Source: Candidatus Melainabacteria bacterium 17Bon1m (GTDB taxonomy: Bacteria > Cyanobacteriota > Vampirovibrionia > Obscuribacterales > Obscuribacteraceae). Taken from it: a stretch of 64,000 nt of DNA. A model generated the notes under the pieces. That model did not search any database, had not been told where the DNA came from, and saw only the letters and a list, made by a program, of their open reading frames with translations. Location of the stretch: NCBI GenBank assembly GCA_032128875.1, contig JAVLKG010000003.1, forward strand, positions 952,974-1,016,973, in the 5' to 3' direction. Positions 46,307-62,545 of the stretch are shown here, piece by piece (the first letter of the stretch is position 1; each line of letters begins with the position of its first letter). The translations under genes and the position numbers were made by a program.

Positions 46307-46319
46307 AAGACCAAAAATT

Positions 46320-47338: not shown

Positions 47339-47393
47339 CCGAACCAGCATTAGAGCCTAGAATCTAGAGTATGGATTCCAATCAGAGGGAGAT

Positions 47394-47603: not shown

Positions 47604-47688
47604 CCCAATAAAGCTACCCCGCGCGGTAACGCAGGGTAGGGCGGGAGAGAACCCGCTAGAGAACCATAATACAAGGGAGAGAACCCAC

Positions 47689-47964: not shown

Positions 47965-48020
47965 TGTCGAATTAATCGACCAATCATCCGAGTCAGTCGA
48001 ATTATCAGGAGAAAATCGAC

Positions 48021-48689
48021 ATGTCTAATGTAGTCCCGATCAATCAAAAGACTCTATCTATCGTTCCGCAACAGAACGCATTTACAACAGCTATGTCATT
48101 GGTTCCAATCAAGAAGAAGCGATTTGGCGGCAGACCGCCGAAAGGACCGAACAACCCGCACACCCGGAAGGCGCTCAGCAAAGAAGAGCTTGAGCGAGTA
48201 TTCGAGGCAGCGAAGACGGCGAGCAGATACGGGCATCGTGATTACTGCATGATGTTGATTGCATATCGTCACGCGCTGCGCTCCAGCGAGATCTCCAAAT
48301 TGCATTGGTCAATGATTGATCTCGACAAGAAAGAAATATACATTCCTCGATCAAAAGGCGGTCAATCGAATTATCATCCGCTATCGGATCTTGAAATCAA
48401 AGAATTGAATTGGCTGCCTGATCATCGTGGATATGTATTCAAGGCTCAAACTGGTGGCAACCTGCAAGCCAGAGCCATCTTCAAAATAGTTGCTCGAGCC
48501 GGCAGACTCGCTGGACTTAATTTCCCACTTCATCCACACATGTTCAGGCATTCAAAGCTGACTCATCTGGCGGAGCGGAAGACTGACGCGTTCATTCTTC
48601 AGAACTTCGCTGGTCACAAAGACATTAGATCGACTCAAGAATATGTGAAAGAGGCAAAATGGCAATTTGAGGGGCTGACTGAAGACTAA
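48021..48689 (+). CDS. FimB/FimE-like short tyrosine recombinase
   Basis: RDYCMMLIAYRHALRSSE, HPHMFRHS and GHKDIRSTQEY; catalytic domain only. Confidence 0.85.
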   Translation: MSNVVPINQKTLSIVPQQNAFTTAMSLVPIKKKRFGGRPPKGPNNPHTRKALSKEELERVFEAAKTASRYGHRDYCMMLIAYRHALRSSEISKLHWSMIDLDKKEIYIPRSKGGQSNYHPLSDLEIKELNWLPDHRGYVFKAQTGGNLQARAIFKIVARAGRLAGLNFPLHPHMFRHSKLTHLAERKTDAFILQNFAGHKDIRSTQEYVKEAKWQFEGLTED

Positions 48690-49045
48690 TGAGAAAGCTT
48701 GACTGTTCGGAAAGTACTGAGAATTTGCTAAAGGCAGCGGGTGAATGCCCGTATTGCCAAATGGACACGCTTTGGAAGCAGAAGTGGTCAACTCACTGGT
48801 TCTATTGCTGCATGTGTGATCAATGGTGGACAACTGAACCAGAGCCGTTGAAGATGAATCCAGGCTATATCAATCAGATTGATTTCATGCAAGCAATGCG
48901 AAACTATCAGCCGGAGCCTTCAATGTTGGTAGCAGCTATAGCCAATCAACCGAGTTACGCTCATCAGCAATTACACCCAACCAATCGATTAGCTCAATGG
49001 CGCTCACCGCTCGAATTGGTAGTGAATGAATCAATCACTGTTTAA
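48689..49045 (+). CDS. Phage protein with zinc-ribbon motif
   Basis: CPYC...CCMC; TAATG-coupled to the upstream gene. Confidence 0.6.
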   Translation: MRKLDCSESTENLLKAAGECPYCQMDTLWKQKWSTHWFYCCMCDQWWTTEPEPLKMNPGYINQIDFMQAMRNYQPEPSMLVAAIANQPSYAHQQLHPTNRLAQWRSPLELVVNESITV

Positions 49046-49136
49046 TTGATTGGACCGACCCAGCAAGCAACAATCTAAACATATAACCCCAGGCGCCCCT
49101 CATTGAAGCCACTGGGGTTTTAGTTTTGGAGATGTA

Positions 49137-49424
49137 ATGCTGAAAAGAATCAAGTGGAGTTACCACTATAAGATGGTCTGGCTGGGGACGCTACTGTTCA
49201 AGACCGGCAAAGCCCATTGCTCTTTCTGTAATTCCAAGCCCACCAATTTCATTCAATACGCCGGTCGGTTGAAATGGGAACACCTGTGTTTCGACTGCTA
49301 CATGATTACCCATGATGTGATCATGGAACTGGCCGACATGAACTTACCAGCCGATGCGATAAATTATCGATTTATCTCTAAACAAGCATGGAAAGAGTAC
49401 ATGAAGCGTCAGGCCGCCCTCTAA
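49137..49424 (+). CDS. Phage protein with two CxxC motifs
   Basis: CSFC...CFDC; GGAG SD. Confidence 0.6.
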   Translation: MLKRIKWSYHYKMVWLGTLLFKTGKAHCSFCNSKPTNFIQYAGRLKWEHLCFDCYMITHDVIMELADMNLPADAINYRFISKQAWKEYMKRQAAL

Positions 49425-49666
49425 ATCTTCTTGGCTCCGCAACGCAGGCAGAGCATTACCCGCCTGGCGATGTCATAGCGACTCATCCGCCCAGATATAT
49501 CGATCTGGCAATCACCACATTTAGTACCAGACAAAGCTTTCTTATCAATCAATCCGCAATGCCTGGATTTATTGAACTCAGTCGAATTCGGTCTGTTCTT
49601 CAATCTATTTAGAACAGTCAATTCACGTTTTTGATCATGACTAAGCCCAACTCTATGGCTCGACAT
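49421..49666 (-). CDS. Small basic CxxC phage protein
   Basis: CGDC...CLRC; AGGT SD on the minus strand. Confidence 0.5.
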   Translation of the reverse strand: MSSHRVGLSHDQKRELTVLNRLKNRPNSTEFNKSRHCGLIDKKALSGTKCGDCQIDISGRMSRYDIARRVMLCLRCGAKKI

Positions 49667-50030
49667 TCTTATTGATTACCTAAAAACGGACAAAAAAAAT
49701 AGCGCTCTTTCGGTATGTTTAGCTTATCTGTTGCTGCGTGAAGCCCTAGAACACACACACATAACCCTCACAGACTCAGTAGGCTGCTAATGGCTATGGC
49801 GGATGACTCGTATCCGCGCATCTCTCCCAGGCTGAAATGTAAAAGGTGTAATTGCTTTCTTTTTTACCATCGATCAATTTCCCAATCAATTCCCTCAATC
49901 AGATATTGATCTGGTATCAAATCCAACACCATATCGAAAACATATCCTCATCATTTAATCAAACCAAATTGATTAGAGTCGAATTCAATCCAATACACTA
50001 ATCGAATCAGTGGTATCGGATGTGGTGGCA

Positions 50031-50321
50031 ATGTTATTTGGCGAAGACAAATTCAATCGATGTGATCTGTATGTCTCAATCTCATTAGAGCCTAAACAGA
50101 TCATGTTAGCTTCGAACTCAGGGATTCGATATAAAACATTGAAATCTGAGAAATTGAATCTAACTGAATTGGATCAAGCCGTTGAACAGATGAGATCTGA
50201 AATCCCGAACTCTGACCAGGAAGAATCTTATTGGGAACTCTATCTGACTCCAAATCATGTTGAACAATACAATCAGATCCGAAACAACCGAAACAAGACG
50301 TTTTGTCTATTGGTGGCATAG
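50031..50321 (+). CDS. Phage hypothetical protein
   Basis: ATG at 50031 after GGTGG. Confidence 0.5.
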   Translation: MLFGEDKFNRCDLYVSISLEPKQIMLASNSGIRYKTLKSEKLNLTELDQAVEQMRSEIPNSDQEESYWELYLTPNHVEQYNQIRNNRNKTFCLLVA

Positions 50322-50388
50322 ATGTCTGAACCTCTCCTCTTTTATCCTCTCGCTACGCTCACCTTCATCACCTTTGCAGGATACATAT

Positions 50389-50646
50389 ATGTTTCCCTCT
50401 TATCCTTCATATCGTCAGAACCCGTCGACTTCAACGCCGACAGAGAACTATAAATACTCACAGGAAGTCAGAACCAATGCACAGAGAAAACTCGACAGCC
50501 TCTTTATTGACCTCAGCAACAAAACGCCCAAAGACAAAAAAGCGTATTACCTTTACCAAGTTCTTCACGAAGCTGTTAACGCGAAAGCGGAACCAGGATC
50601 AAGAGACAAAGGTGAAACAGTCGACGACGACTATCTCTGTGGATAA
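50389..50646 (+). CDS. Phage hypothetical protein
   Basis: ATG at 50389 with AGGA SD. Confidence 0.5.
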   Translation: MFPSYPSYRQNPSTSTPTENYKYSQEVRTNAQRKLDSLFIDLSNKTPKDKKAYYLYQVLHEAVNAKAEPGSRDKGETVDDDYLCG

Positions 50647-50812
50647 ACTCCCAGATCTGAATGTCCAATTCCCTGAACAGCCATTGACTGAAGAACAGCA
50701 ACAACAGGAAGACGACAAACTCCCAGAACCAATTCCACCAGTAATCCCAGCTCACATCAGAGCTCAATCATTCCCAGTCAAGAAAATCACTGAAAACAAA
50801 TGGGAAGTCTAA
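50612..50812 (+). CDS. Phage hypothetical Pro/Gln-rich protein
   Basis: 3' part of ORF 50477..50812; start uncertain. Confidence 0.45.
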   Translation: MKQSTTTISVDKLPDLNVQFPEQPLTEEQQQQEDDKLPEPIPPVIPAHIRAQSFPVKKITENKWEV

Positions 50813-50900
50813 ATCTCTTCTTCATTCATAGAATTCTCTGGTATTGCATTCAATACCATCTGTATATCTTCTCAATCATTCAAGGACTCAGAATCTACTG

Positions 50901-51116
50901 ATGGAAACAACTGCAGTTCTCGCAATTGCCTTCTTGATCTATGCAATCGCTCAAACAGTCGAATCAGCAATTCTCAAAGAGAAACTTGATGATCTAACAG
51001 ATATATCCAATCAGTTGATCAATGATGTTCAAACTATTTGGGATTCAACCATGAATCTAAACGTCATTGAATGCGACTTCCAACCAAATACATTCTCTGA
51101 AGGTAATGACCTCTAA
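50901..51116 (+). CDS. Small membrane-anchored coiled-coil protein
   Basis: METTAVLAIAFLIYAIA followed by heptads. Confidence 0.55.
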   Translation: METTAVLAIAFLIYAIAQTVESAILKEKLDDLTDISNQLINDVQTIWDSTMNLNVIECDFQPNTFSEGNDL

Positions 51117-51544
51117 TGGACTTCATATTCATCCCTCTGATTCTATTCCTGATAGCGACAGCGCTGCATAATCCCTATCAGCGAGTGAACGAGCTCGACA
51201 AACAAATCACCGATCTAACCAAGCTGATTCACGCAATCGAAGCAGATCATTACATCCATGAATTCAATTGGAAACCAATCGGAAACAAAGTCAGAACAGC
51301 AGAGAAAACAATCTCAGTCCATGAACAACAGATTGGTTATGTAATGGATCAACTCAACATGATCAAATCTGACCTTCAATTATTTGTTGGACGATCAAAC
51401 GCCAATCGACAAGCTGAACTACTCAACGAGATCTTTACTCGACTCAATACCGCTGAACAGCAAATAGATGCTTTGAGAGAAGAAGACCTAAAGACGCTGC
51501 AAGACGCAGAGCTCCTAACGACCATTAGAAACACTCTTTCCTGA
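51116..51544 (+). CDS. Membrane-anchored coiled-coil protein
   Basis: MDFIFIPLILFLIA followed by heptads; TAATG-coupled. Confidence 0.6.
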   Translation: MDFIFIPLILFLIATALHNPYQRVNELDKQITDLTKLIHAIEADHYIHEFNWKPIGNKVRTAEKTISVHEQQIGYVMDQLNMIKSDLQLFVGRSNANRQAELLNEIFTRLNTAEQQIDALREEDLKTLQDAELLTTIRNTLS

Positions 51545-51559
51545 AGGTAACTCAAACCA

Positions 51560-51742
51560 ATAGAACTAATCATTCCTGCGATAGCAGCATTCGATGTTCT
51601 ATTGACCTCATTCATCATTTATCGATTCATCCTATCAATCAAAGCTGATCAGAAATTGAATCGAATAGAAGCGAAGCTGGATAGGTTAGAACAGTCATTA
51701 GATCAGTTAGAGAGATCATCTGATTGGAATCACATCGTTTAA
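51560..51742 (+). CDS. Membrane-anchored coiled-coil protein with apparent ATA start
   Basis: IELIIPAIAAFDVLLTSFIIYRFILSIKADQKLNRIEAKLDRLEQSLDQLE..; not in the ORF track. Confidence 0.45.
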   Translation: MELIIPAIAAFDVLLTSFIIYRFILSIKADQKLNRIEAKLDRLEQSLDQLERSSDWNHIV

Positions 51743-52214
51743 CTGATTCATTGAACCGCAAGGATTGAATTGATTAAGGCTGGTTCCGAAGTGGTCGGTC
51801 GATATGATACGGAGCGGGCAATTAGACAAGGCCAGTTAATCAACAAAATTGTTAGTTGTGGGTACCAAGTATTGAAGGACTCGGTACTAATCAGGCTGGC
51901 TTATTAATCAGGGCTGCCGGTTGCCTCGGTCGGAAGGTACCGGGTATACCCACCCAGGGGGGAAAGCGTCCGCCCCCTTTAGGGTGCCTTCAAGCGTGCG
52001 CATAACTTTGATTGGGGGTCTGAATTCATCAATGATTCGACCAGATTTCCTGATTTCAAAATCGACTCAAATTTTGCAATAAATTCTGATTGGGGGTATT
52101 GATCATACCCACTGATAGATATATCCCTAATTTAATCGATTGAAAATCAGATTGCTGCAGTTCGGGCTGGTACTGTATCTGGTGTCAAATATTTAGTACC
52201 GGTGGTGGTGGCAA

Positions 52215-52448
52215 GTGGATAATAATAAGGTTACTGATGATGCGGCAGTTGCTGGACTCCAAGAAGTTCGGGACAGCCTGAAGTTGCAAGTTGAGCTGTC
52301 TGCAATGATGGATCAGCTTTCTGATTCGATGAGCCGTGAAAATCTCTTGGAGTGGTCCAAGGCTAAATCAGTCTTGGTCAACAATCTCTATAAGGCGATT
52401 GATGGAATGATTCAGGCAGTCATCGACGCGCCGAAGGCGGCTGTCTAA
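52215..52448 (+). CDS. Phage hypothetical protein
   Basis: First gene of a translationally coupled run. Confidence 0.55.
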   Translation: MDNNKVTDDAAVAGLQEVRDSLKLQVELSAMMDQLSDSMSRENLLEWSKAKSVLVNNLYKAIDGMIQAVIDAPKAAV

Positions 52449-52666
52449 TGATCGACGAAGCCACCCTTGATCTTTGGGAGCGCATAGCGACCCAGCAAGC
52501 TTTCCACGAAGGCTTTCAAAGTACGTTGGCTTTGCCATTCCTGACGTTGATCAAAGAGAATAAGCGTCTCCAAGGATTGGTCGACAAGTTCAATGAGCCT
52601 GAAGCGGCTCGCCGCAAGACGGCAACTTTGATCGATGGCATCGAGGTCAATTCTAATGGGCGCTAA
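52448..52666 (+). CDS. Phage hypothetical protein
   Basis: TAATG coupling. Confidence 0.55.
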   Translation: MIDEATLDLWERIATQQAFHEGFQSTLALPFLTLIKENKRLQGLVDKFNEPEAARRKTATLIDGIEVNSNGR

Positions 52667-52946
52667 TTCACACTATTTCCAATCGATGCTTGAGAGATAT
52701 GTCAACAATTCTGTTGCTGATGAAGGCGGTAAATTCTCGCTTCAGACGAATGTGTTTGATTATTCGATCGAGCTTCAATATCTGAAGGATGGACAGAAGG
52801 AAGTAGCGACGATTCCATTCTTTTCTGATCCGACTTATCCAGTTGAGAAATTGCTTGATCTGGCGCGCAAACTTCGGAACAAAGTCAATCATCAGTTGGG
52901 GAATAGTCAGCCGGTCGATCCCTGTTCATTCGGGGGTTGTATCTGA
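52656..52946 (+). CDS. Phage hypothetical protein
   Basis: ATG at 52656 with GAGG SD. Confidence 0.55.
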   Translation: MGANSHYFQSMLERYVNNSVADEGGKFSLQTNVFDYSIELQYLKDGQKEVATIPFFSDPTYPVEKLLDLARKLRNKVNHQLGNSQPVDPCSFGGCI

Positions 52947-53179
52947 TGAAATTCGCTGTTGTCTGGTGGCTTGTCACGACTACTTTAAGTGGTGGCAGTG
53001 TGCCAATTGATAAATACACGTTTGAATATCCTGCATTTTGCCCGCTTGTTTGCGAGAGGAAAGAGCAGACTCAGATCGCGGCTCAGTTCTTCACTGATCG
53101 CAAAACGGCAGAAGATTTCATGAAGCAGGCGCCGGATCGAATCAAGAAACGCATGAAATTGATGGAGATTGACGAGTAA
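52946..53179 (+). CDS. Phage hypothetical protein, possibly exported
   Basis: TGATG coupling; hydrophobic N-terminus. Confidence 0.55.
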   Translation: MKFAVVWWLVTTTLSGGSVPIDKYTFEYPAFCPLVCERKEQTQIAAQFFTDRKTAEDFMKQAPDRIKKRMKLMEIDE

Positions 53180-53583
53180 TGATCCAGGAATTGGTTAAAC
53201 GCTGGGACGCTAAAAAAGCTGACCTCCGTGACAAATATTCAAAAAAGCGCCCGGGCAGCTATGGGGATATCGTCAAAGACGTTGTTCAATTGGTGACTTC
53301 TGAAGGGAAATATGGCGACTACAATCTAGATCCCGAGCGAATCACTTTGATCGACCACGGCGACTATCAAGGAACTGAGCTTTTCATTATTCCAGAAAAA
53401 GGCTATCAGCCTAGTCGGTTTTGGTTCGTCAAGGTCGGCTACGGCTCATGCTCTGGCTGTGACACTCTCCAATCGATTCAGGGTTGGAGTGATCAAATCT
53501 CGCAACAAGAGCTCGACGGGACTATGACCTTGGCGCTGCATATCTTGCAAGCGATCAAGCCGCTGGATGGAGAATCAGTCTAA
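53179..53583 (+). CDS. Phage protein with GYGSCSGCD motif
   Basis: DHGDYQG...YGSCSGCDTL. Confidence 0.65.
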   Translation: MIQELVKRWDAKKADLRDKYSKKRPGSYGDIVKDVVQLVTSEGKYGDYNLDPERITLIDHGDYQGTELFIIPEKGYQPSRFWFVKVGYGSCSGCDTLQSIQGWSDQISQQELDGTMTLALHILQAIKPLDGESV

Positions 53584-53759
53584 TGTCTAAATCAAAATCA
53601 AAGAATCTTGGCGGTCAATCATCCAGAATCATCATGGTCAATCCGAACAAAGAGAAACGCCGGCGCTTGAAGGCGCAGATTCAGAAAATCTTTGAAGCTG
53701 TTGAAGATCAGCCAAAACCAGTTCTTCTGAACGCTGCTCAGAAAGAGGCTTGGACTTAA
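53583..53759 (+). CDS. Small basic phage protein (58 aa)
   Basis: MSKSKSKNLGGQSSR...; TAATG-coupled at both ends. Confidence 0.5.
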   Translation: MSKSKSKNLGGQSSRIIMVNPNKEKRRRLKAQIQKIFEAVEDQPKPVLLNAAQKEAWT

Positions 53760-54079
53760 TGCCTTACGGTAATATCTATTACAACCCTGAAGATTACGAC
53801 TGCGAAATTGTCGATGAACTTGACTATGGGCTCAGCTATGAATTCGATAAAGTTGTCGTTTTCCGCCGCAAAACGACGGACGAATTAGCCTGGGGGTCGG
53901 ACTCCGGCTGCTCATGTCCAACCCCATTTGATAGGTTCAATGGATTTGAAGATCTAGACAAGCTCCCGGAAACATTGGCTGATTTCGAATTGGCTGTTCG
54001 GCGGCTGGGATATCGAGAAGAAGTATCAGCCGACAAACTTGAATTCATCCAGAAAGTCAAAAAACTTCTAAAAGCTTGA
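53759..54079 (+). CDS. Phage protein with DSGCSCP motif
   Basis: YEFD...WGSDSGCSCPTPF. Confidence 0.65.
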   Translation: MPYGNIYYNPEDYDCEIVDELDYGLSYEFDKVVVFRRKTTDELAWGSDSGCSCPTPFDRFNGFEDLDKLPETLADFELAVRRLGYREEVSADKLEFIQKVKKLLKA

Positions 54080-54360
54080 TTTATTACACAGTCCATTTCT
54101 TCGATTCATTCACCAATCGCCGCGCAACGCTCGATTATGACATTGCCGACTGGGATGATGAATCAAGTGAATTCCTCTGGAATGAACATAATTGGGGCTG
54201 TGACTGCAATCGAATGTCAGTCTTCGAAGACGAAGAAGAAACCAAATGTGTTTATGAATTCGCTGGAAAGCATGTGGATCGCCGCGTCTTCATTGAAAAG
54301 ATCGTTCATCGAGACGGCAGAATTCTCTATCAAGAAGATATCGAATCAATCTGGACCTAA
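54076..54360 (+). CDS. Phage protein with W..NWGCDCNR motif
   Basis: Acidic 94-aa ORF coupled to the upstream gene. Confidence 0.55.
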   Translation: MIYYTVHFFDSFTNRRATLDYDIADWDDESSEFLWNEHNWGCDCNRMSVFEDEEETKCVYEFAGKHVDRRVFIEKIVHRDGRILYQEDIESIWT

Positions 54361-54584
54361 CATGGACTTTCCCGAAGAATCTGAACCAGAACGCCATTGT
54401 TCCGGTCCTGAACCGATCATTCATGAATCCCAGAACGATTTCTGGTGGCCGGGTTCTGCCGGCAATTGCCTTGATACAGATGATCATTTTGATGAAAATC
54501 CTGACTAAAAAGCCCCGGGTGAGTTACTTCCGGAGCCCTTTAGACAGGAGGATTTATGTCTTCGATTTCTTGATTGCAGAAAAA

Positions 54585-54627
54585 TGATACCACGGATAGT
54601 ATCACTTTTCCAATTCTATGCTATGAT
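54585..54627 (+). promoter_or_regulatory. Operator palindrome plus extended -10 promoter for the ncRNA/tRNA operon
   Basis: TGATAC-N8-GTATCA (54585-54604) and TGcTATGAT (54619-54627). Confidence 0.6.
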
Positions 54628-54639
54628 TAATTACATGAT

Positions 54640-54972
54640 CAATCAACTTCCCGGAGGCAGACCGGGCTTTTCAGTGATTTCCTCCAAGCCCAGCCACTGG
54701 GGGATTAATAGGTCGATTGAGTGTGAAGGATGCGCCCCGACGGGTGGGATAACTGGGAATGCCCTAGCTTCCGGATTAGGTAATTGATTGGACCCTTTGT
54801 CTGACGGGACAATAAATCAATCACATGCCAGGCTGGTTTTAATCGATCAGCGTGGCTTCATGGGAAATCGGAAGGCTTACAATCCTTCCCCCTCTTGCGA
54901 GACAGGCTTAAACGTCCGCTGAATACAGCGGGGCTAGTTATTAGAGGGTCTGCTGAAACCAGTGATTTCCCT
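54640..54972 (+). ncRNA. Candidate large structured non-coding RNA (class unknown)
   Basis: Closing helix GCAGACC/GGTCTGC, nested long-range helices and several hairpins; lies between the promoter and the first tRNA. Confidence 0.6.
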
Positions 54973-54976
54973 ATTT

Positions 54977-55050
54977 GGGCTCGTAGTGTAATGGTTAGCA
55001 CGGCACCGCTCGAGGTGTAAGAGCATGTTCGAATCATGCAGGGTCCACCA
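54977..55050 (+). tRNA. Atypical tRNA-like gene with 6-nt anticodon loop (identity undetermined)
   Basis: D-arm GTGT/GCAC, T-arm GCATG-TTCGAAT-CATGC and 3' ACCA; anticodon arm GCACC-GCTCGA-GGTGT. Confidence 0.7.
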
Positions 55051-55070
55051 ATTTTATTGAGAGAGAAATC

Positions 55071-55280
55071 ATGCCAGAAATTAAAGATCCTTTCGAATAT
55101 CACAAACCATCAGAGAAGCAATTGTGTGTCTTGTCTCAGCTTCGCGCGAAGTGCAAGGAATTGAACGATCTCCAAATGCAATTGCTCCCGCCTGGTCGCT
55201 GCCGATCACTGGCTGTAACTAAGCTGGAAGAAGTTTCGATGTGGCAGAATAAAGCTGCCGTGTTTGAATTGGCGGAATAA
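55071..55280 (+). CDS. Acb2/Tad1-like helical-hairpin protein (putative immune-signal sponge)
   Basis: F.YH.P...Q....LR....EL......P.GR..SLA.TKLEE..MW.N.A pattern, recalled for this family. Confidence 0.7.
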   Translation: MPEIKDPFEYHKPSEKQLCVLSQLRAKCKELNDLQMQLLPPGRCRSLAVTKLEEVSMWQNKAAVFELAE

Positions 55281-55291
55281 CCGCCCTTCTT

Positions 55292-55367
55292 GGTCCTGTC
55301 GTCTAGTGGCCCAGGATTCCGCGTTGTCGCCGCGGAGACGCGGATTCGAATTCCGCCAGGACCGCCA
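55292..55367 (+). tRNA. tRNA-Asp(GTC)
   Basis: GGTCCTG/CAGGACC acceptor; CCGCG-TTGTCGC-CGCGG; GCCA end. Confidence 0.9.
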
Positions 55368-55371
55368 CTTT

Positions 55372-55447
55372 GCCCGATTAGTTTAGTTGGAAAAATGCCA
55401 GCCTTCCAAGTTGGTGTCGCCGGTTCGAATCCAGGCATTGGGCTCCA
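55372..55447 (+). tRNA. tRNA-Gly(TCC)
   Basis: CCAGC-CTTCCAA-GTTGG; TCCA end; bulged T-stem. Confidence 0.85.
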
Positions 55448-55452
55448 ATTTT

Positions 55453-55525
55453 GCCGAAATAGCTGAGACGGTTCAAGCGCCGGTCTGCAAAACCGGAGAC
55501 ATCAGTTCGAGTCTGATTTTTGGCT
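55453..55525 (+). tRNA. tRNA-Cys(GCA)
   Basis: CCGGT-CTGCAAA-ACCGG; U discriminator; CCA not encoded. Confidence 0.85.
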
Positions 55526-55529
55526 TTAT

Positions 55530-55614
55530 GCAACAGTATCCAAGCTGGCTCAAGGACGCGGCCTGTAAAGTCGTTGGTTAACCCCGGTCATTGGTTCGAA
55601 TCCAATCTGTTGCA
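55530..55614 (+). tRNA. tRNA-Tyr(GTA)
   Basis: GCAACAG/CTGTTGC acceptor; GCGGC-CTGTAAA-GTCGT; long variable arm. Confidence 0.88.
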
Positions 55615-55618
55615 ATTT

Positions 55619-55690
55619 TGCCTTGTCGTCTAACTGGTAGGACAGCGGACTTTGAATCCGTTAATGGACGTTCGAACCGTCCCGAGGCAG
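55619..55690 (+). tRNA. tRNA-Gln(TTG)
   Basis: U1-A72; GCGGA-CTTTGAA-TCCGT; G discriminator. Confidence 0.88.
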
Positions 55691-55711
55691 CTTACTAAAT
55701 CATAGAAATTT

Positions 55712-55741
55712 GAAAGCCGCCCTGGTGGGAGCGGCTTTCTT
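55712..55741 (+). terminator. Terminator of the tRNA operon
   Basis: GAAAGCCGC...GCGGCTTTCTT. Confidence 0.75.
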
Positions 55742-55868
55742 GGCGAACGGGGGAGTCGTTCTCTTTTATCTTGTCAGACCACCAAACCCAATCAATTAAT
55801 CAATCCAATTTCCTGATCGAAATAAATCGAATGCCACCATAAGCGGTATCACTTATTGGGGAAATTGA

Positions 55869-56372
55869 ATGAGATATATTCTCGAAATAGATGAAAAAGG
55901 AATCCCGAGACTAAAGGGATTCAATGAAGATTTAGCCGTTCAAATGGCGGCAGAACTTGAATTGATCGGTCGAATGGTTGGCGCCCAAGACGGGGAAAGA
56001 GCCAGCCATGCTTTGACTAATGTCAATGAGCGCATGTCAACGCTGAGAGCGGAGAACACAGATCTTAGAAATCAGGTTTCTACCCTGCGGGCTGAAGCTA
56101 AGAAGTACGAAGAACTCAATCACGCGCGCGGTCGCGAGATGCGCTCATTGTTCGGATTCAATCCAAGCATTAGCTATGAAGAATTCGTTGGTCATCTCAG
56201 AGTCTTGGGCGACGCCTACAAGAGACAAGCGGCGAAATATACCGGCGGAATATCTATCCAGTCGATATTGGATCTGCAAAAGCAATTCGCGCCGTACATG
56301 ACACCCAAGCCGATCGTCATGGATCGTCCGGCCTCAATTCATCGCGGCTCGCCGCTCATTTGGGGTAACTAA
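55869..56372 (+). CDS. Phage coiled-coil hypothetical protein
   Basis: Heptads LRAENTDLRNQVSTLRAE. Confidence 0.65.
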   Translation: MRYILEIDEKGIPRLKGFNEDLAVQMAAELELIGRMVGAQDGERASHALTNVNERMSTLRAENTDLRNQVSTLRAEAKKYEELNHARGREMRSLFGFNPSISYEEFVGHLRVLGDAYKRQAAKYTGGISIQSILDLQKQFAPYMTPKPIVMDRPASIHRGSPLIWGN

Positions 56373-56374
56373 TC

Positions 56375-57091
56375 ATGATTGAATATCCCAAAGTTGATTC
56401 TCTGTTCAAGAGAGACGAGAAGACCCAGAAGGTAAACGGGGAGATCAGGCATAGAGAATATGATTTGGTCACCCATTGGGTTGTTTCCGAAAAGATTCAC
56501 GGTCAGAATGTTCGCGTCCATTGGGACGGAACTAATGAACAAATCACATTAGGCAGCCGCCGGCAGACCGGAGATGACAGCCTTCCGAAAGATCTGGTCA
56601 GTCATATCAGAGAAAGAATCACTGTCGACAAGATGAAGGCGGCTTTTGGGCCGGCGACAGTCACGCTCTTTGGTGAAGGTTACGGACCTGGTATCAATGG
56701 CGGTGGCGATCTGGCAGACTCCAAGAGATTCGCTCTCTTTGATTGCCGAATTGACAAGGCTGATGGTTGGTGGATGGAACCAGATCAACTCGAAGGTGTT
56801 GGGGAGCACTTTGGAATTGAAACGGCTCCAGTCTTGAAAGGGCTCCTAACTCTTCAGGAAATCATTCCGATGGTCAGGAAAGGTTTCAATTCAATTGTGG
56901 CTCTGAAGAATACTGGGAAAGAAGTCTGGGCTGAAGGCGTCGTTTGTCGCACTTATCCCGCGCTGAAATTCCGGGATGGAACAAGACTCCAATTCAAACT
57001 CAAGACCGAAGACTTCGCTAAGAATGTGATCGCTCTCCCTCAGAGAAAGGGAATCATTCAGGTCGAAGGCGTTCTATCGCCGGCGGGATAG
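56375..57091 (+). CDS. Rnl2-family RNA ligase (adenylyltransferase domain)
   Basis: Motif I EKIHGQN, III FGEGYG, IIIa FALFD, IV EGVV and V FKLK. Confidence 0.85.
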   Translation: MIEYPKVDSLFKRDEKTQKVNGEIRHREYDLVTHWVVSEKIHGQNVRVHWDGTNEQITLGSRRQTGDDSLPKDLVSHIRERITVDKMKAAFGPATVTLFGEGYGPGINGGGDLADSKRFALFDCRIDKADGWWMEPDQLEGVGEHFGIETAPVLKGLLTLQEIIPMVRKGFNSIVALKNTGKEVWAEGVVCRTYPALKFRDGTRLQFKLKTEDFAKNVIALPQRKGIIQVEGVLSPAG

Positions 57092-57126
57092 TTTTTGCCT
57101 ATCTTGCTGGGCACTGCCGATAGATC

Positions 57127-57158
57127 AAGAAAGCCGCCTTTTTGGGCGGCTTTCTGTT
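57127..57158. terminator. Bidirectional terminator
   Basis: AGAAAGCCGCC-TTTTT-GGGCGGCTTTCT between the convergent ligase and tRNA genes. Confidence 0.8.
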
Positions 57159-57179
57159 TCCGTTACAGCTCGGAGTAAA

Positions 57180-57269
57180 TGGCGGATTGTGAACGATTCG
57201 AACGTTCGGCACCCTCTCGGGAGCGCCCGGTTAGCAACCGAGTGCATTAGACCTCTCTGCCAACAATCC
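57180..57269 (-). tRNA. tRNA-Ser(GCT)
   Basis: GGATTGT/ACAATCC acceptor; CTCGG-TTGCTAA-CCGGG; long variable arm; GCCA end. Confidence 0.9.
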
Positions 57270-57270
57270 A

Positions 57271-57348
57271 TGGTTGCGAGAGGTTCGATTCGAACGAACG
57301 ATCTTTGGGATATGAGCCCAACGAGATAGACCACTTCTCTACTCCGCA
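57271..57348 (-). tRNA. Initiator-type tRNA-Met(CAT)
   Basis: TTGGG-CTCATAT-CCCAA (three G-C pairs); ACCA end; 1-nt acceptor bulge. Confidence 0.82.
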
Positions 57349-57527
57349 AAATCAATCTTAAAACTGAATGACCTCCCCAATCAATAGGAAGGTCATCTAG
57401 TAACAAAATTTTGACTGTATTTAGTTGGGTCGCTAAATTTCACGCCTCCGAAAAGCCGTTTGCAGGATTTTTGAGTTTACCATAACTGGTATCAAATATG
57501 GTGGCATTTTAGGAATCAAATGATTAA

Positions 57528-57842
57528 ATGACTCAAAACTATTCTGATCGCGCTGTTGGTCAGTATTTCAGGAACGCAAAAATCGAAGATGGTTGGCACA
57601 AACTATTTCTGGTCGCGCTTCATCATGCGAATCGAGACGCTAGAAATATCAAAGCCCCTCAATCTCCGAACCGTAAGTTTCAGCCAGGAGTAGCGACGCC
57701 CCAGGCGGAGCTCGACGCGGAAGAAGAGAATCTAAGAGACTGGATCGAATCTGATCAATTGATTGATTGGTGTCTATACGTAGGCAAAGATCCAGATATT
57801 GCAAGGGAACAAATATTGAGATCGCTCGATGGTTTACATTAA
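57528..57842 (+). CDS. Phage hypothetical protein
   Basis: First gene of a late-like operon; AGGA SD. Confidence 0.6.
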   Translation: MTQNYSDRAVGQYFRNAKIEDGWHKLFLVALHHANRDARNIKAPQSPNRKFQPGVATPQAELDAEEENLRDWIESDQLIDWCLYVGKDPDIAREQILRSLDGLH

Positions 57843-58497
57843 GAAGCGCAAGCGCGGCAACCCTGACGCCTACCTAGTCCCGCCAGAAATGTGGTGTGGA
57901 CATCCAAAGGCTAACGGCGAGAAATGCCGCGGCTCTCGACTCAAGAAAGAAGACGGATCTCTGACGGAGTATTGCCAGGCGCATGATCCGAAGAAGATCG
58001 CTGAAAAGACGACCTTGAAGGACAAGGCAGAAGAAGCCAAACAGGCAGCCTTAACTTTGATTGAGACGCCTATTAGAACGCTCCATGACGTTGTTGCCAC
58101 TGCTGATTGGGCGCTTCGATCAATGCTGTCCGGTGAAATCACAATTGGTCAAGCCAATTCAGTCGGATTCTTATTGGACAAAGCTCAGAAGGCGATGGTA
58201 TCAGCCAAGAAATTGGATCCGAAGGAAATCGCCAATCGTGAATTTACTCGAGAAGCAGCAATTGAGGCAGCGCGGAAATTAACAGTTGCCGACGCTCGCC
58301 AGGTGGCAGCCCGCCGAAATATGCACTTGCTAGAAGATGCAGCTTATAAGCAGCCGGAAATCAAGGTTCTCACGATCGAGGCTGCCCAAGAGAAGGTTAA
58401 TCAATTGGTACCGCGCACGGTGGCAGAAGATAAGAGAGAATCAGAATCGTTGGACGTGGTGGAGATAGATCAATCAAATGAAAGTACAGAAATATAG
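57829..58497 (+). CDS. Phage protein with N-terminal C-x8-C...C-x2-H motif (possible small terminase / DNA-binding)
   Basis: CGHPKANGEKC...YCQAH; function inferred only. Confidence 0.5.
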   Translation: MVYIKKRKRGNPDAYLVPPEMWCGHPKANGEKCRGSRLKKEDGSLTEYCQAHDPKKIAEKTTLKDKAEEAKQAALTLIETPIRTLHDVVATADWALRSMLSGEITIGQANSVGFLLDKAQKAMVSAKKLDPKEIANREFTREAAIEAARKLTVADARQVAARRNMHLLEDAAYKQPEIKVLTIEAAQEKVNQLVPRTVAEDKRESESLDVVEIDQSNESTEI

Positions 58498-59095
58498 TCA
58501 AGATTCAGTTATGAAAGCGCCTGCAGAATTGCAGGAAGCGCGCATGGTCAAGCTCGAAGAAGAGCTATCAAAAATCAGCCGAAGTCTTCAGACCTTGATG
58601 GCAGCCGAATATCCGGAAGGCGAAAATGTCGAACTCCAATTGGTTCACCTTGGCGATGTATATCTTTCGGATGAAAACAACTGCGCGGTTCACGCTGGAT
58701 TCAACGGCAGACTAAGCGGCTGGCTTTTATATTCAGAAGATATCGAAGATTTGACCGAACTGGTTGAATTCGTTTCAAGTCAATACTTTGAGAAGCAGCA
58801 TTTTCACAAGATTGAAGCTGAACCATTGAGCAGTAATGGACAGGTGATTGTTGCTCTTGAATCGGCTGGATTTACAAAAGTCGGCATCAGAAAAATGAAT
58901 AGATTGATTGGCAATCGCTGGGTGGATACGCTCCTAATGGAGAAATTGAATCCGGCTCTAACTGAATCGCCGGTCGAAACAATCGAAATTAAGAAACAGG
59001 ATGAAGGGGAGCTTCCGGTTCTAAACGAACAAGGAGAGGAAGCTAAATGTTCGGAACTGCCCCAGGCCCCCAGGTCAGTAACAACCCTTACCTAA
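58478..59095 (+). CDS. GNAT (RimJ/RimL-like) acetyltransferase-fold protein
   Basis: KIEAE...N...LESAGFTKVG.R......RWVDTLLME. Confidence 0.7.
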   Translation: MKVQKYSQDSVMKAPAELQEARMVKLEEELSKISRSLQTLMAAEYPEGENVELQLVHLGDVYLSDENNCAVHAGFNGRLSGWLLYSEDIEDLTELVEFVSSQYFEKQHFHKIEAEPLSSNGQVIVALESAGFTKVGIRKMNRLIGNRWVDTLLMEKLNPALTESPVETIEIKKQDEGELPVLNEQGEEAKCSELPQAPRSVTTLT

Positions 59096-59700
59096 ACCAA
59101 CAGCAAAGATACATGATGATGTTGCTGGGTGACTCGATGTTGCCTAGCAACCTTCAATTAAGACCCAATCTTGGACAGGCGGAAGCTGCCCGGGCGCGAT
59201 CTGACGTGATGCGCTCGACGGTTAATCCTCAAGTCGCTGATTTAACGGTCAAATTCGGCGCCAATGGTATGGGGAATAGCACGTTTGCCGCGGCTAGAAG
59301 CGCAGCGCTGCAAGCTGAAGGCGCGCGCATGGCTGAAGATGCAGCGCAAGACGCGATGGATCGCGCATACAACAGAACGATGGCTGCCAGAAGTAGCTAT
59401 TTCAACGGTGAAGGCGGACTGGCAAGCGGAACTACTGAAGGCGCTTTGGCGGAAGAGGAAAGGCAGCGCCAGGAACGTGAGCGCAGAATGGAGCGCTACG
59501 GGCAATTTGGGCAAGCCGGTTTAGGTTTGCTCCAGGCAGGATTCCGACCAACCTACAATCAGCCTTATCCCGGTGGCCCTGTTGCTCAGGGTCCAAGTAT
59601 CTTTTCACAATTTGGATCTGGTGTTTCCCAATCTCCGTTAGGAGCGCTGGGCCGTTTCGGTGCTGGCGTTATTAACGGAATGTTCGGGAGCCGATTCTAA
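59047..59700 (+). CDS. Putative ejection / DNA-pilot protein
   Basis: Gly/Ala/Gln-rich; G.G.S.....A...Q.E pattern; follows the GNAT gene. Confidence 0.55.
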   Translation: MFGTAPGPQVSNNPYLNQQQRYMMMLLGDSMLPSNLQLRPNLGQAEAARARSDVMRSTVNPQVADLTVKFGANGMGNSTFAAARSAALQAEGARMAEDAAQDAMDRAYNRTMAARSSYFNGEGGLASGTTEGALAEEERQRQERERRMERYGQFGQAGLGLLQAGFRPTYNQPYPGGPVAQGPSIFSQFGSGVSQSPLGALGRFGAGVINGMFGSRF

Positions 59701-60821
59701 TGTTTGGCGGTGGATTCGGAACAGCGCCCGGTGGGCGCCCTCTCGGCTCATATCAATTTGGCGCAAGCGGTGTAACCGGTGGCGGTTACATCAATTGGCT
59801 TGATGGGTCGAATTCGCTAGTTGATTTGTATCGCCAGAAAGTAGCGGCTAGCGAACAGGCTTGGCGTGATGGCAAGATCACTAATCCTAATGAGATGCAA
59901 TCGCTCAGAGATTCTTTGAAGCGATGGGAAGATATTCAATCAAATCGCGGCGTCACTCCGCAAATCTTCGCACTGCCGGAATACAGTACGGATAACTTCT
60001 TTACTGAAGCCAATGAAGCTTCGCGCCTTCCTGGTATGGGCGGGCAGGTTAGAGCGGATGCAGTTGAAGCAACCCTTCCTGAAAGTCTTCGTGGTCAGAA
60101 TCGAGGTCAATTGATGCGACCTTGGACAGCGACCGGATTGGTCGACAGTAATTTTGGCAGCGGGTCGGAAGGAAATTATGTAGCCGGCGGCATCGCCAGG
60201 AATATGTCTACGACCGCGCCAACCGATCCAAACCGGGTGAGCGCTTTCGGTGGAGCTTATAACGGTGGCGATTTACGATCTGCTAGCCAGTTTGGAAGCT
60301 ATCAATCTCCGCTTCTGCGCGGTGGTGATGCTCATGGCGCAGTCGCGCGCGTGACACCAAATTGGGGCGGAAGCACAACCAATCCATTTCAGAACCAAAG
60401 CGGAAATCTTTCAAATCCTTCCCCGCTGTGGGATCAGCCGCGCGACTCTGGACCGCGATTTGACGACAATGGAAGATCTTCGCGTCCTGGCGGTGGTTAT
60501 ATTCAAAACACACCAAACGGACCATATGAAGTTGATAGATTCGGTAATCGTTTATCGTCCGGAATGCAATCAAGCACATTTGGCGCTATGGCGATGCCTT
60601 ATGGTGGTCCTTCGACTGTTGATTACAGGAAGCAGCCTGATTTTAGTCCGCGATATATGGGACCGTACAGCCAAGCTTATTACAACAATGCGATGAATTC
60701 AGCCGCAATCTATGGCGGTTTGCTTGGCAGCGGTAACGGATATTCAGCCAGTCCGAGCGCCTACTATCAGCCCGGACAGGGCATTTTCAACAATGACTTC
60801 AATCGAAGAGGCGGATTCTAA
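59700..60821 (+). CDS. Gly/Ser/Asn-rich putative internal virion protein
   Basis: Low complexity; coupled; shares MFG..GTAPG N-terminus with the upstream gene. Confidence 0.55.
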   Translation: MFGGGFGTAPGGRPLGSYQFGASGVTGGGYINWLDGSNSLVDLYRQKVAASEQAWRDGKITNPNEMQSLRDSLKRWEDIQSNRGVTPQIFALPEYSTDNFFTEANEASRLPGMGGQVRADAVEATLPESLRGQNRGQLMRPWTATGLVDSNFGSGSEGNYVAGGIARNMSTTAPTDPNRVSAFGGAYNGGDLRSASQFGSYQSPLLRGGDAHGAVARVTPNWGGSTTNPFQNQSGNLSNPSPLWDQPRDSGPRFDDNGRSSRPGGGYIQNTPNGPYEVDRFGNRLSSGMQSSTFGAMAMPYGGPSTVDYRKQPDFSPRYMGPYSQAYYNNAMNSAAIYGGLLGSGNGYSASPSAYYQPGQGIFNNDFNRRGGF

Positions 60822-62545
60822 TGTACTCAACTAGATCGAATGCAAGCCCTCTTAAACCAATGGATTTCTTCGCGCCGCCGCTGATTCCAAAGGTTGATCA
60901 ATATCGACCAGAGCCAAAGACTTTGGGATTTGGAACTCTGCCAAGTCCTAAGCCAATGCCTGTTGGAATTTCTGATCAGATTTACGGACTGCCAATTGGT
61001 ACCAATGGAAACTATGAACGCCAGTATTCGACGGCTGATGAACTTCTAGGAAGAGAACCAATCTTGGAGCCTCCGCCTAGACCAGCGGGAATGCATTCAG
61101 CCTGGCAAGAAGGGCCCGATCCTTCTTACATGCCTTCGCGCGGACGCGGGCAAGTGCCGGCAGGCTATGACAAAGAAGCCTGGCTTGAACAAGGTTTACT
61201 GGTTCCAATTGAAGAAGTTCAAAGACAACAACAAGAGCTTTTGAGGCAGAAACAAGAAGGAGCCAATAGAACGGCAGCGATGCAAGGCGCTCCAATGGGC
61301 GCCGATGACGGAAGCTTGGTAAATCTTGATGATTTCCAGGTTCCGCAACGTCAGCCATTCATGCCGGATCCGAATGATCCAATTGCAAGATTTGGTCAGC
61401 CGCCTGTGCCGGCGCCTGGAAATCCGTACATCAACGGCGGTCAAATGCCCTATCCAGGCGGTATGTCCGGTCCGCACATGCAAGGTCGGATGCAAAACAT
61501 CCTTGATGAAATGTTGACTCGCCAACAATACGGCCGTCAATACAATGACATGCAACTGCAGCGCGATCAGTACGATGACGGCTGGGACAGAGCCCGCGCG
61601 GATATCCTCAATCCTCTCATGGGTGGCTTGATGGGTGGTCGCGGCATGGCAGCGATGACCGCTGATTCAAACAATCGCAGAAATCAAATCATGGATCGCC
61701 GGCAGTTGAGACGCCAGTCGATGACAGATCAGTGGGGACAAACCAAAGATCTGATCAGCATGATTGCAGCTAATGATCCGCAAACGATCAAGAATCAGAA
61801 CATGCTGGCGAAAACCCAGAATGACTATATGCAGAAGATCATCAATCAGCAAAATGCGAACACGAATCAATTCAGTTCGCAAAGTAACGCACAGTACAAA
61901 TCCCGTATGGCTACAGTAGCCGAAAGCAAGGCCGCCACCGCTGCCAGCAACCTTCAACGATTGATCAGCGAAGGCGCTGACAGAAGCCAACGTGGCTGGG
62001 CAATGATCGAATCAAATCGTTCTAAATGGGAATCTTCGCTGGAAATGCGCGGAATGGAACTTGAGCAACGCAAGGCGCAAGCCGCTGCCTCAAACGATAT
62101 CCGAATGATGGCATTGATCCAAAAAGATGAAGCCGATTTGGCAAAAGAGCAGATCGCATATGACAAGATGAGCGCAGATCTTGAATCGAAAGCGGCTGAG
62201 GTAGACAAGAATGGAGCGCCAAAGCGAAGCGCTGAATTCGTTGATAAATACGGAACTAAGGCAGCGCCTGGTAAAGAACCAGCGCCACAGCAGAATCAAG
62301 CCGCGGATATCATCAACGCGCTTGGAGGATTTTTCCAGAGAGTCGCAGGAGGAAACCAACAGAGTGGCACAACAGCGCCAGCTCCGAAGCCGGTTCCTGG
62401 AAAACAACCAACTAAGCCAGCCGCTCAATCAGCCGGATCCAAACCAATCACGCCGGATGTAGTCCGTATGTTGAAAGCGAAATTTCCAAACGATATGAAA
62501 GCCGCTATGGCGGAAGCTAGGCGCCTTGGATATAGGATCGATTAA
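60821..62545 (+). CDS. Pro/Gln/Met-rich putative ejection protein
   Basis: Disordered plus coiled-coil, no Cys; coupled. Confidence 0.55.
   Translation: MYSTRSNASPLKPMDFFAPPLIPKVDQYRPEPKTLGFGTLPSPKPMPVGISDQIYGLPIGTNGNYERQYSTADELLGREPILEPPPRPAGMHSAWQEGPDPSYMPSRGRGQVPAGYDKEAWLEQGLLVPIEEVQRQQQELLRQKQEGANRTAAMQGAPMGADDGSLVNLDDFQVPQRQPFMPDPNDPIARFGQPPVPAPGNPYINGGQMPYPGGMSGPHMQGRMQNILDEMLTRQQYGRQYNDMQLQRDQYDDGWDRARADILNPLMGGLMGGRGMAAMTADSNNRRNQIMDRRQLRRQSMTDQWGQTKDLISMIAANDPQTIKNQNMLAKTQNDYMQKIINQQNANTNQFSSQSNAQYKSRMATVAESKAATAASNLQRLISEGADRSQRGWAMIESNRSKWESSLEMRGMELEQRKAQAAASNDIRMMALIQKDEADLAKEQIAYDKMSADLESKAAEVDKNGAPKRSAEFVDKYGTKAAPGKEPAPQQNQAADIINALGGFFQRVAGGNQQSGTTAPAPKPVPGKQPTKPAAQSAGSKPITPDVVRMLKAKFPNDMKAAMAEARRLGYRID

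Follow-up and report, generated by a model that had tools for sequence, protein, structure and literature searches.

An accessory tRNA region in a Melainabacteria prophage with a candidate structured RNA, an Acb2-family sponge homologue and a short Rnl2-like ligase

Do the genes packed between positions 54580 and 57350 of a 64,000-nucleotide (nt) stretch of contig JAVLKG010000003.1 from Candidatus Melainabacteria bacterium 17Bon1m (the window in the following) cooperate as one machine, or are they independent parts of an accessory region? This block inside a prophage combines a non-coding stretch of about 340 nt, a transfer RNA (tRNA)-like element, a 69-amino-acid (aa) open reading frame (ORF) of the Acb2 family of nucleotide-signal sponges, five elongator tRNAs, a coiled-coil ORFan, an Rnl2-like RNA ligase and a convergent tRNA pair. 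A first-pass annotation had read it as one co-regulated counter-defence and translation-rescue module, and all components named there are present according to ARAGORN, Rfam, Pfam and PHROG matches. We favour, with slightly better than even confidence, a reading in which the block is an accessory region specific to this lineage: it would comprise several transcription units, and their products would work independently of each other and not as one machine. In support of this, the ligase is missing beside the sponge at 18 of the 19 other loci, and the short ligases of Streptomyces phages have no sponge nearby. The region is thus possibly an early, co-repressed accessory set of a sponge, spare tRNAs, an RNA-sealing enzyme and a candidate stable RNA.

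For the distribution of the arrangement, a search with an alignment of sponge homologues gave 19 loci (13 metagenomic, 5 genomic and 1 from IMG/VR). The whole gene order recurs in a single one of them, the sister phage L021, an IMG/VR contig of 44,993 bp whose genes, from the integrases through to the structural ones, follow the same order as in the prophage. Its local order matches the window, with a homologue of the non-coding stretch, a tRNA, the sponge, six tRNAs, the coiled-coil ORF and the ligase, at protein identities of 85% (sponge), 55% (coiled-coil) and 76% (ligase). The tRNA sets of the two phages differ (Trp, Glu, Thr, Tyr, Cys, Phe and Gln in L021 versus Asp, Gly, Cys, Tyr and Gln as plus-strand elongators in the window), and the convergent tRNA-Ser/Met pair, which the first-pass annotation had correctly placed in the window, was not found at the matching place in L021. 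In 1 of the 19 loci a ligase is found close to the sponge homologue, the other 18 carrying neither a ligase nor a coiled-coil gene, and a tRNA is located within 100 nt of the sponge homologue in 2 of the 19. The sole such tRNA case beyond L021 is the unrelated locus L011, in which a tRNA gene directly abuts the sponge homologue. Five of the loci are shorter than 4.5 kb, so that a missing ligase or tRNA is weak evidence there. More relatives of the phage were sought in IMG/VR, the 'phages' collection, 103 genomes of the family and 400 genomes of the phylum, and none were found beyond L021; ligase-based searches gave no match at first and later L021 only, with 0 of the 400 other sampled phylum genomes. 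The synteny expected among related phages in IMG/VR was thereby found in L021 and nowhere further. The features of the block are as follows, with the strand given as plus, minus or unassigned.

54511..54541, plus: terminator-like hairpin closing the upstream gene unit; in L021 the loop is kept and the stem differs yet pairs; weak fold alone
54585..54604, unassigned: operator-like palindrome TGATACC-N6-AGTATCA, site 1 of 3, conserved in L021
54619..54627, plus: possible extended -10 element TGnTATGAT, put forward from reading; L021 has TGnTAGATT in register
54634..54976, plus: candidate structured stable RNA, about 340 nt, with a 5' domain (54635-54861) and a 3' domain (54862-54971)
54977..55050, plus: tRNA-like element with encoded CCA; ARAGORN 'tRNA-??? 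(tc)'; Rfam tRNA 40.3 bits (cut-off 29, permissive scan)
55071..55280, plus: Acb2-family nucleotide-signal sponge homologue, 69 aa (PF24729, phrog_1454)
55271..55285, plus: small hairpin across the sponge stop codon, z -3.2; by reading, L021 has a hairpin of other sequence at the same place
55292..55691, plus: elongator tRNAs Asp-GTC, Gly-TCC, Cys-GCA, Tyr-GTA and Gln-TTG (ARAGORN, Rfam)
55712..55770, plus: tandem terminator-like hairpins with T-runs ending unit 1; same arrangement in L021
55788..55851, unassigned: regulatory spacer with the phage-specific CCAATCAATTA motif and operator-like site 2, the latter identical in L021
55869..56372, plus: coiled-coil ORFan, 167 aa, its stop 2 bases before the ligase start codon
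56375..57091, plus: Rnl2-like RNA ligase, nucleotidyltransferase domain only, 238 aa (PF09414, phrog_548)
57128..57155, unassigned: terminator-like hairpin in the gap that separates the ligase unit from the convergent tRNAs, with a 12-pair stem including 7 G-C pairs (read on the plus strand); from its position it possibly terminates the minus-strand tRNAs too
57180..57348, minus: convergent tRNA-Ser(GCT) and initiator-like tRNA-Met(CAT) (ARAGORN, Rfam)

The layout of the plus strand points to two units. Since no conserved terminator-like site is present within 54545-55712 in the window and L021, a single unit leading from the RNA via the tRNA-like element and the sponge gene to the five tRNAs is plausible, in line with the first-pass proposal. 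The closely spaced coiled-coil and ligase genes form a second unit with the terminator-like hairpin at its end. A 20-bp imperfect palindrome (TG[A/C][T/C]ACC-N6-GGTATCA) precedes each of the two plus-strand units and recurs at the prophage right end, and the pattern CCAC-N5-8-GTATCA has 3 sites in the 44.2-kb prophage, where 0.46 are expected on the basis of the genome. L021 has kept sites 1 and 2; site 3 lies in an early-gene control region near a small helix-turn-helix (HTH)-like ORF. At the prophage right end, an 84-aa ORF (C3:1043138-1043392; L031 12239-12493, minus strand) looks HTH-like by eye, and its product is a candidate binder of the palindrome. Another motif, CCAATCAAT(TA), is found in 9 copies in the prophage versus 0.76 expected (49043, 49882, 54781, 55788, 57377, 57762, 58903 and two beyond the window). 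Several of these copies occupy spacers between genes and have a GGTATCA element at a distance of 25-100 nt, and the motif is probably a phage promoter or regulator site. The operator-like motifs before both plus-strand units hint at common repressor control, and to this extent the proposed co-regulation is retained.

In the arrangement that we favour, unit 1 would be one transcript, starting at a promoter that is overlapped by the repressor-type palindrome and leading into a two-domain stable RNA of about 340 nt. The non-decoding element with alanine identity would come next, and RNase P cleavage would define where the RNA stops (3' end) and where the following messenger RNA (mRNA) starts (5' end). 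The short mRNA of the Acb2-family sponge, the five elongator tRNAs and the terminator would complete this unit. Unit 2, behind the same operator-like motif, would provide the coiled-coil ORFan and the nucleotidyltransferase-only Rnl2-like ligase, and unit 3 would be the separately acquired convergent pair of tRNA-Ser and initiator-like tRNA-Met. Regarding functions, the sponge would oligomerise and sequester cyclic-nucleotide or adenosine diphosphate ribose (ADPR)-type immune signals, the tRNAs would top up phage-favoured codons and buffer tRNA depletion, the ligase would reseal 3'-OH/5'-P RNA breaks, and the long RNA would be a new phage RNA linked to tRNAs, comparable to GOLLD/ROOL or to the stable RNAs of the T4 tRNA cluster.

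The ligase matches PF09414 (RNA_ligase; E 1.4e-16) and phrog_548 (E 3.2e-23) and aligns to the T4 Rnl2 structures 1s68/2hvq (E 4e-4), including the KIHG lysine motif (EKIHGxN); motifs III, IV and V were read from the sequence by eye. It scores below the Rnl2 equivalog TIGR02307 (30.9 bits versus a cut-off of 197.15; profile positions 24-222 of 326) and below the DraRnl/Rnl5-type TIGR02306 with its N-terminal OB domain (29.3 bits versus a cut-off of 151.15; profile positions 154-340 only). The predicted protein is not a full Rnl2: in contrast to the 334-aa T4 enzyme, with which it has the PF09414 domain and the KIHG motif in common, its chain stops at residue 238 and the C-terminal domain of Rnl2 is missing. 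The earlier label of an Rnl2-type ligase is thus appropriate for the catalytic domain and not for the C-terminal part. Its nearest cultured relatives are 215-aa "RNA ligases" of tRNA-rich Streptomyces phages of about 127 kb; one of these proteins, from a phage that has at least 34 tRNAs, is 38% identical over 94% of the length. Because Streptomyces phages carry these relatives, the short form is a known but uncharacterised kind of ligase. The Streptomyces phage proteins (e.g. Muntaha gp209) have a similar domain, but the lineage-specific coiled-coil neighbour of the window ligase is missing from the Streptomyces phage compared. This ORFan gave no family match at threshold and sub-threshold coiled-coil matches only; it has just 3 relatives among 5.8 billion clustered proteins, and its scores in the ESM Atlas were all below 0.9. 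Logan contigs of up to 42.6 kb encode relatives of the sponge and of this coiled-coil protein at 59-82% identity.

Among the prophage ORFs scanned, no end-healing enzyme (polynucleotide kinase/phosphatase) was seen. Without a kinase/phosphatase, such a ligase reseals only 3'-OH/5'-P breaks. The window ligase would therefore be limited to breaks of this kind, and a repair pathway for tRNAs in the style of T4 would be incomplete. The translation-rescue reading of the first-pass annotation is weakened by this result, by the truncated form of the ligase and by the support that codon supply receives as well.

For the 69-aa ORF, the proposed Acb2/Tad1-like sponge is a true family match: it hits PF24729 (Acb2_Tad1_hairpin; E 1e-14, 54.9 bits with a cut-off of 27, profile positions 2-56 of 58) and phrog_1454 (E 3.7e-16), and its pN/pS (ratio of non-synonymous to synonymous differences) versus L021 is 0.15. 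The AlphaFold2 (AF2) model has a mean predicted local distance difference test (pLDDT) score of 90.9 and forms the two-long-helix hairpin of Acb2 (residues 15-38 and 43-65) with an extended N-terminus. The top Foldseek match is 7uq2, T4 Vs.4/Acb2 with cGAMP (prob 0.89, template modelling (TM) score 0.63-0.69, E 0.76), and Acb2 8h2x and Tad1 entries are also listed; the E-values are weak, which is usual with such a small fold. The sponge-family profile gave weak matches against solved structures (Acb2_43, 9ptq, E 0.016; T4 Vs.4, 7uq2, E 0.16). Across 24 homologues, Y10 and R25 never vary; hhalign pairs them, weakly (E 0.056), with Y11/K26 of JBD67 Acb2, Lys26 being replaced by the invariant Arg. 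R43/T50 stand at positions equivalent to R67/T74 according to spacing and the HMMER alignment to T4 Vs.4. In the accessible part of a study on Acb2 including PaMx33, Y11/K26 belong to the cyclic-dinucleotide pocket and R67/T74 to the cA3 trinucleotide pocket (PMC10312549). A model of four sponge copies reached an interface score (ipSAE) of 0.76 versus 0.00 for the best control, with runs agreeing in at least 93% of contacts and a partner pLDDT of at least 77; in the calibration, the mark was reached by 20 of the 30 proteins solved as homo-pairs and by 1 of the 23 solved as single chains. The window sponge may thus form a homo-oligomer like known Acb2 proteins (T4 Vs.4, Acb2 of PaMx33/JBD67, Acb2_43), from which it differs by its length of 69 aa versus about 76-108 aa in the compared members and by its position within a tRNA operon.

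Three points count against a straightforward assignment as an immune-signal sponge. The pocket-residue equivalences rest on weak alignments, and the passing score of the four-copy model may come from likeness to solved Acb2 hexamers. Also, a scan of the lysogen genome for SMODS (the cyclase of CBASS, antiphage systems that signal by cyclic oligonucleotides) and AAA_13 (PrrC/RloC-type) gave no match; no matching defence is thus visible in this host, but its genome is 93% complete, and the absence is uninformative since the host is a permissive lysogen. The closest solved relative, Acb2_43, is reported in the available part of a preprint to bind 3'cADPR and to block Thoeris and not CBASS (10.1101/2025.08.24.671296), and the ligand of the window sponge is not predictable from sequence or model. 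A limited look at the literature on Acb2, tRNA and phages, as far as the sources were accessible, found no description of a sponge within a tRNA operon. Expression of the sponge gene from within a tRNA precursor would be an unusual early delivery route for an anti-defence protein. The knowledge of Acb2 or RNA ligases themselves is unchanged by this locus, and the element has so far been seen in just two phages, both from a host lineage with poor sampling.

ARAGORN called 8 tRNA genes in the window, all within 54977-57348; the Rfam tRNA model found 7 of the 8 at gathering score and the tRNA-like element in the permissive scan. The five elongator tRNAs have no near-identical host copies, and the anticodon arm and 3' end of the phage tRNA-Met match the host tRNA-Met at C3:735011. 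Compared with L021, tRNA-Gln is identical in 72 of 73 and tRNA-Tyr in 85 of 87 bases. tRNA-Asp(GTC) at 55292-55367 and tRNA-Glu(TTC) at 8225-8301 of L021 have 69 of 76 bases in common, i.e. the anticodon was switched on one gene body, which we take to be Glu-like. Codons of four of the six elongator tRNAs are enriched in the phage: GGA, TAT, CAA and TGT are, per 1000 codons, 25-65% commoner in prophage ORFs than in long host ORFs, whereas Asp codons are equal in total and AGC/AGT are rarer in the prophage ORFs. Because of this enrichment of Gly, Tyr, Gln and Cys codons, the ordinary codon-supply explanation has some support.

The atypical tRNA noticed in the first pass is real. Its minimum free energy (MFE) fold is a clean cloverleaf comprising 71% of the ensemble, with a canonical T-loop; the anticodon loop has 6 nt on a 5-bp stem instead of a 7-nt loop with U33 and a 3-nt anticodon, and the other arms are canonical. 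Due to this 6-nt loop, the element should be unable to decode in the usual way. The acceptor stem carries G3:U70 and the discriminator is A73, i.e. the alanine identity set. According to an acceptor-stem script, G3:U70 is present in 2 of the 68 ARAGORN tRNAs of the genome, the tRNA-like element and tRNA-Ala(GGC); two further tRNA-Ala genes show it only after the ARAGORN start was re-registered by one base by eye. G3:U70 is the main determinant of alanyl-tRNA synthetase (AlaRS), which ignores the anticodon, and so AlaRS is expected to charge the element with alanine, given its G3:U70 and A73. In L021 this position, directly 3' of the RNA copy, is taken by another element: it is Y-shaped, 57 nt long and has an acceptor-like stem of 7 bp, and a normal tRNA-Trp follows. 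The conserved feature is thus a tRNA-shaped structure that adjoins the RNA at its 3' end. This element would serve as a processing signal with an RNase P site. With its alanine set and 6-nt loop, it is a concrete testable oddity: is it charged, or a processing signal only? The tRNA-like domain of transfer-messenger RNA (tmRNA) and viral 3' tRNA-like structures have the same alanine identity (G3:U70, A73, CCA) and likewise do not decode normally. The window element differs from tmRNA as a complete cloverleaf with an anticodon arm, and tmRNA was rejected as an identity, as neither ARAGORN nor Rfam called one and the upstream RNA has no conserved tag-like frame.

Directly upstream of this element, the stretch 54634-54976 is the non-coding, conserved and foldable sequence that had been described as a structured RNA of about 330 nt. 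The region 54545-54976 has no conserved ORF: its tblastx similarity to L021 is frame-independent, and each of the six frames contains 3-14 stops. The homologue in L021 is located at 7461-7848 (nhmmer E 2.8e-21), with 191 of 336 aligned bases identical (57%) and two blocks of 16 bases unchanged; between the phages, the synonymous divergence (pS) of the neighbouring sponge and ligase genes is 0.68. Judged by this identity and the 16-base blocks, set against about 68% synonymous divergence nearby, the stretch is under purifying selection. Single-sequence MFE z-scores were -2.9 for the window (343 nt) and -3.2 for L021, and -4.0 and -2.6, respectively, for the 3' domain alone (110 nt). Independent folds of both sequences agree in outline, with a 4-bp closing helix around a long variable arm and two hairpins in the 5' domain, and an invariant 7-bp closing helix around three hairpins in the 3' domain. 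RNAalifold found 68 common pairs in the two-sequence alignment, 21 of them with both sides changed; examples of helices that still pair despite double changes are the inner hairpin 54797-54808 and the hairpin 54870-54889. For the consensus fold, column shuffling gave a z-score of -4.95 with 0 of 300 shuffles as good (overall range -4.4 to -5.0), versus -0.46, -0.69 and +0.03 for three coding control segments of similar length and identity. When the L021 fold was judged on the window, 10 double changes were kept and 1 was broken in the 3' 200 columns, whereas slid controls kept 0-7. From two sequences, a structured RNA is well supported though not proven, and we regard it as fairly probable. 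It would be encoded on the plus strand because of the terminator-like hairpin upstream and the plus-strand tRNAs downstream.

Searches for further copies covered several collections. The region 54580-54976 gave no Rfam match at gathering score or E<=10, and the L021 copy none at E<=5. A blastn search of the 'phages' collection gave no match, 0 of 60 relatives carried a homologue, and among 103 other family genomes one 35-nt match (E 0.0018) was taken as chance. Model R1 of the 3' domain matched the window and the IMG/VR contig only among 22 sources, with 0 of 103 family genomes, and an nhmmer profile of the RNA found itself only on its own genome. Three exact-pattern scans of IMG/VR returned L021 again, plus 3 stretches that share only the 16-19-base probe according to nhmmer/blastn. 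As candidates for a function, an antisense or CRISPR-repeat mimic was rejected since host complementarity of the RNA is not above chance. In both phages, the most conserved RNA block (54908-54921) is complementary to the phage tRNA-Gln in its anticodon arm (55643-55656), with 12 of 14 positions paired; this is likely chance and without weight, because chance alone should yield an 8-nt core in 3 kb and the two partners are separately conserved.

A number of observations speak against an RNA gene and its transcription. Reverse transfer, i.e. the window fold judged on L021, kept 7 and broke 6 double changes, which is no better than slid controls, and the 5' 150 columns are just 43% identical and have no fold signal. 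On the minus strand the fold signal is as strong (z -5.5), so it may come from a DNA-level element. One conserved block of the RNA is an inverted copy of the phage-wide DNA motif CCAATCAAT(TA). The RNA is known in two copies only, from the window and L021, too few for covariation statistics. The promoter of unit 1 is putative, with an RNA start presumed a few bases past the -10 element, and the promoter scan did not call the extended -10 at 54619..54627 and gave consensus-like matches only. Four runs designated 'RNA-Seq' (X1-X4, one sample, TRANSCRIPTOMIC) are uninformative on transcription: they yield contigs of 72-156 kb with a flat depth of 15-23 over 18 kb (window 46000-64000) and therefore look like genomic DNA. 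Taken together with the repressor-type palindrome at the start of the stretch, the motif copies keep alive the view that the "RNA" is partly regulatory DNA. In this alternative, which we consider rather unlikely, the 340 nt are cis-acting DNA (promoter, operator and protein sites) plus a discarded 5' leader of the tRNA precursor and not an RNA gene. The fast divergence of the 5' half and the two-strand signal fit it, but the conserved blocks span more than 300 nt, far past promoter or operator size, and the helices kept paired by double changes, the consensus z-score of about -5 versus about 0 in coding controls and the fold of the 3' domain alone are in conflict with it.

The alternative that RNA, tRNAs, ligase and sponge cooperate as one integrated module, combining decoy or spare tRNAs, repair and removal of alarm signals, appears unlikely to us. 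Adjacency of the parts, their order kept in L021 at 55-85% protein identity, the operator-like motif common to both plus-strand units and the abutting tRNA in L011 would fit a module, as would the established idea of phage tRNAs as an escape from anticodon nucleases, as far as treated in the available part of PMC10264068. However, the rarity of ligase and tRNA next to other sponge homologues (given the five short loci), the lack of an end-healing enzyme among the ORFs scanned, the missing C-terminal domain of the ligase, the absence of tRNA-Ser and tRNA-Met from L021 and the differing tRNA sets argue against it. An explanation that we find improbable to the same degree is an ordinary translation-support cassette, in which the tRNAs compensate codon usage, the odd tRNA is a pseudogene in decay, and the sponge and ligase genes are morons, unrelated to it, that came to lie in one recombination-tolerant spot. 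The codon enrichment agrees with such a cassette, and so do the fluid tRNA content of the sister phages, including the Asp/Glu anticodon switch, and the replacement of the segment 53179-54360 by other ORFs in L021. A decaying gene, however, would hardly keep a perfect cloverleaf, a canonical T-loop, CCA and the full alanine set, and neither the purifying selection on the RNA region nor the operator-like motifs in common, which suggest joint control, are accounted for. Far less probable is the idea that the RNA of about 340 nt with its tRNA-like cap is a new RNA class in counter-defence, for example a chargeable decoy or trap for tRNA-targeting nucleases, with a sponge that mops up tRNA-derived 2',3'-cyclic-phosphate messengers instead of classical CBASS/Thoeris signals; such messengers are reported in the accessible part of PMC13692257.

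Under the preferred reading of separate units, the RNA can be compared with known systems. The T4 tRNA cluster encodes stable RNAs (species 1 and 2). GOLLD and ROOL are large RNAs next to tRNA genes in prophages, according to the part of PMC5737381 that was available, and like them the window candidate is a large non-coding RNA in a prophage that adjoins tRNA genes and is probably co-transcribed with them. In contrast to both, it matches neither Rfam model even at E<=10, has about 340 nt versus about 580-800 nt, comprises two known members and is capped by a non-decoding tRNA-like element. If the element is a stable RNA, it would be the third sequence-unrelated large structured RNA beside prophage tRNA genes, after GOLLD and ROOL, and small enough for structure probing and genetics.

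The block is located in a temperate, podovirus-like prophage of 44.2 kb, which reaches from window position 46320 to about 90535 and is integrated in a tRNA-Ala gene. The attachment (att) core of 42 nt at 46320-46361 equals the 3' part of the tRNA-Ala(GGC) gene and has its second copy at window coordinate 90494 (C3:1043467). Contigs from four public runs end at this core, and one contig of 44,192 nt starts and stops in it, which fits an excised circle or a collapsed repeat. The size of about 44.2 kb follows from the att core at both ends and from this contig. Two tandem tyrosine integrase genes are present at the prophage left end, both with homologues in L021:

46496-47338: tyrosine integrase gene
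48021-48689: tyrosine integrase gene

Past the end of the window, the downstream part of the prophage carries genes for a portal and adaptor of SU10 type, a capsid protein, DnaB, ERF, a lysozyme and a weak sigma-like protein. Within a conserved block past the ligase, an ORF with a GNAT acetyltransferase domain (58478-59095) shows 64% identity in L021. Upstream of the tRNA region, the ORFs at 53179-54360 (phrog_12588, DUF7574 and a 94-aa ORFan) have no L021 counterparts, other ORFs being present there in L021; from this comparison, the segment is a variable accessory slot. A crude repeat scan yielded five short repeat families. The host genome has two more tRNA arrays, at C1:269233-270216 (10 ARAGORN calls) and C4:286272-286805 (5 calls), to each of which Rfam adds one; neither carries homologues of the module proteins (sponge, ligase) or of the RNA. 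The C4 array is preceded by a stretch of about 630 nt without an ORF.

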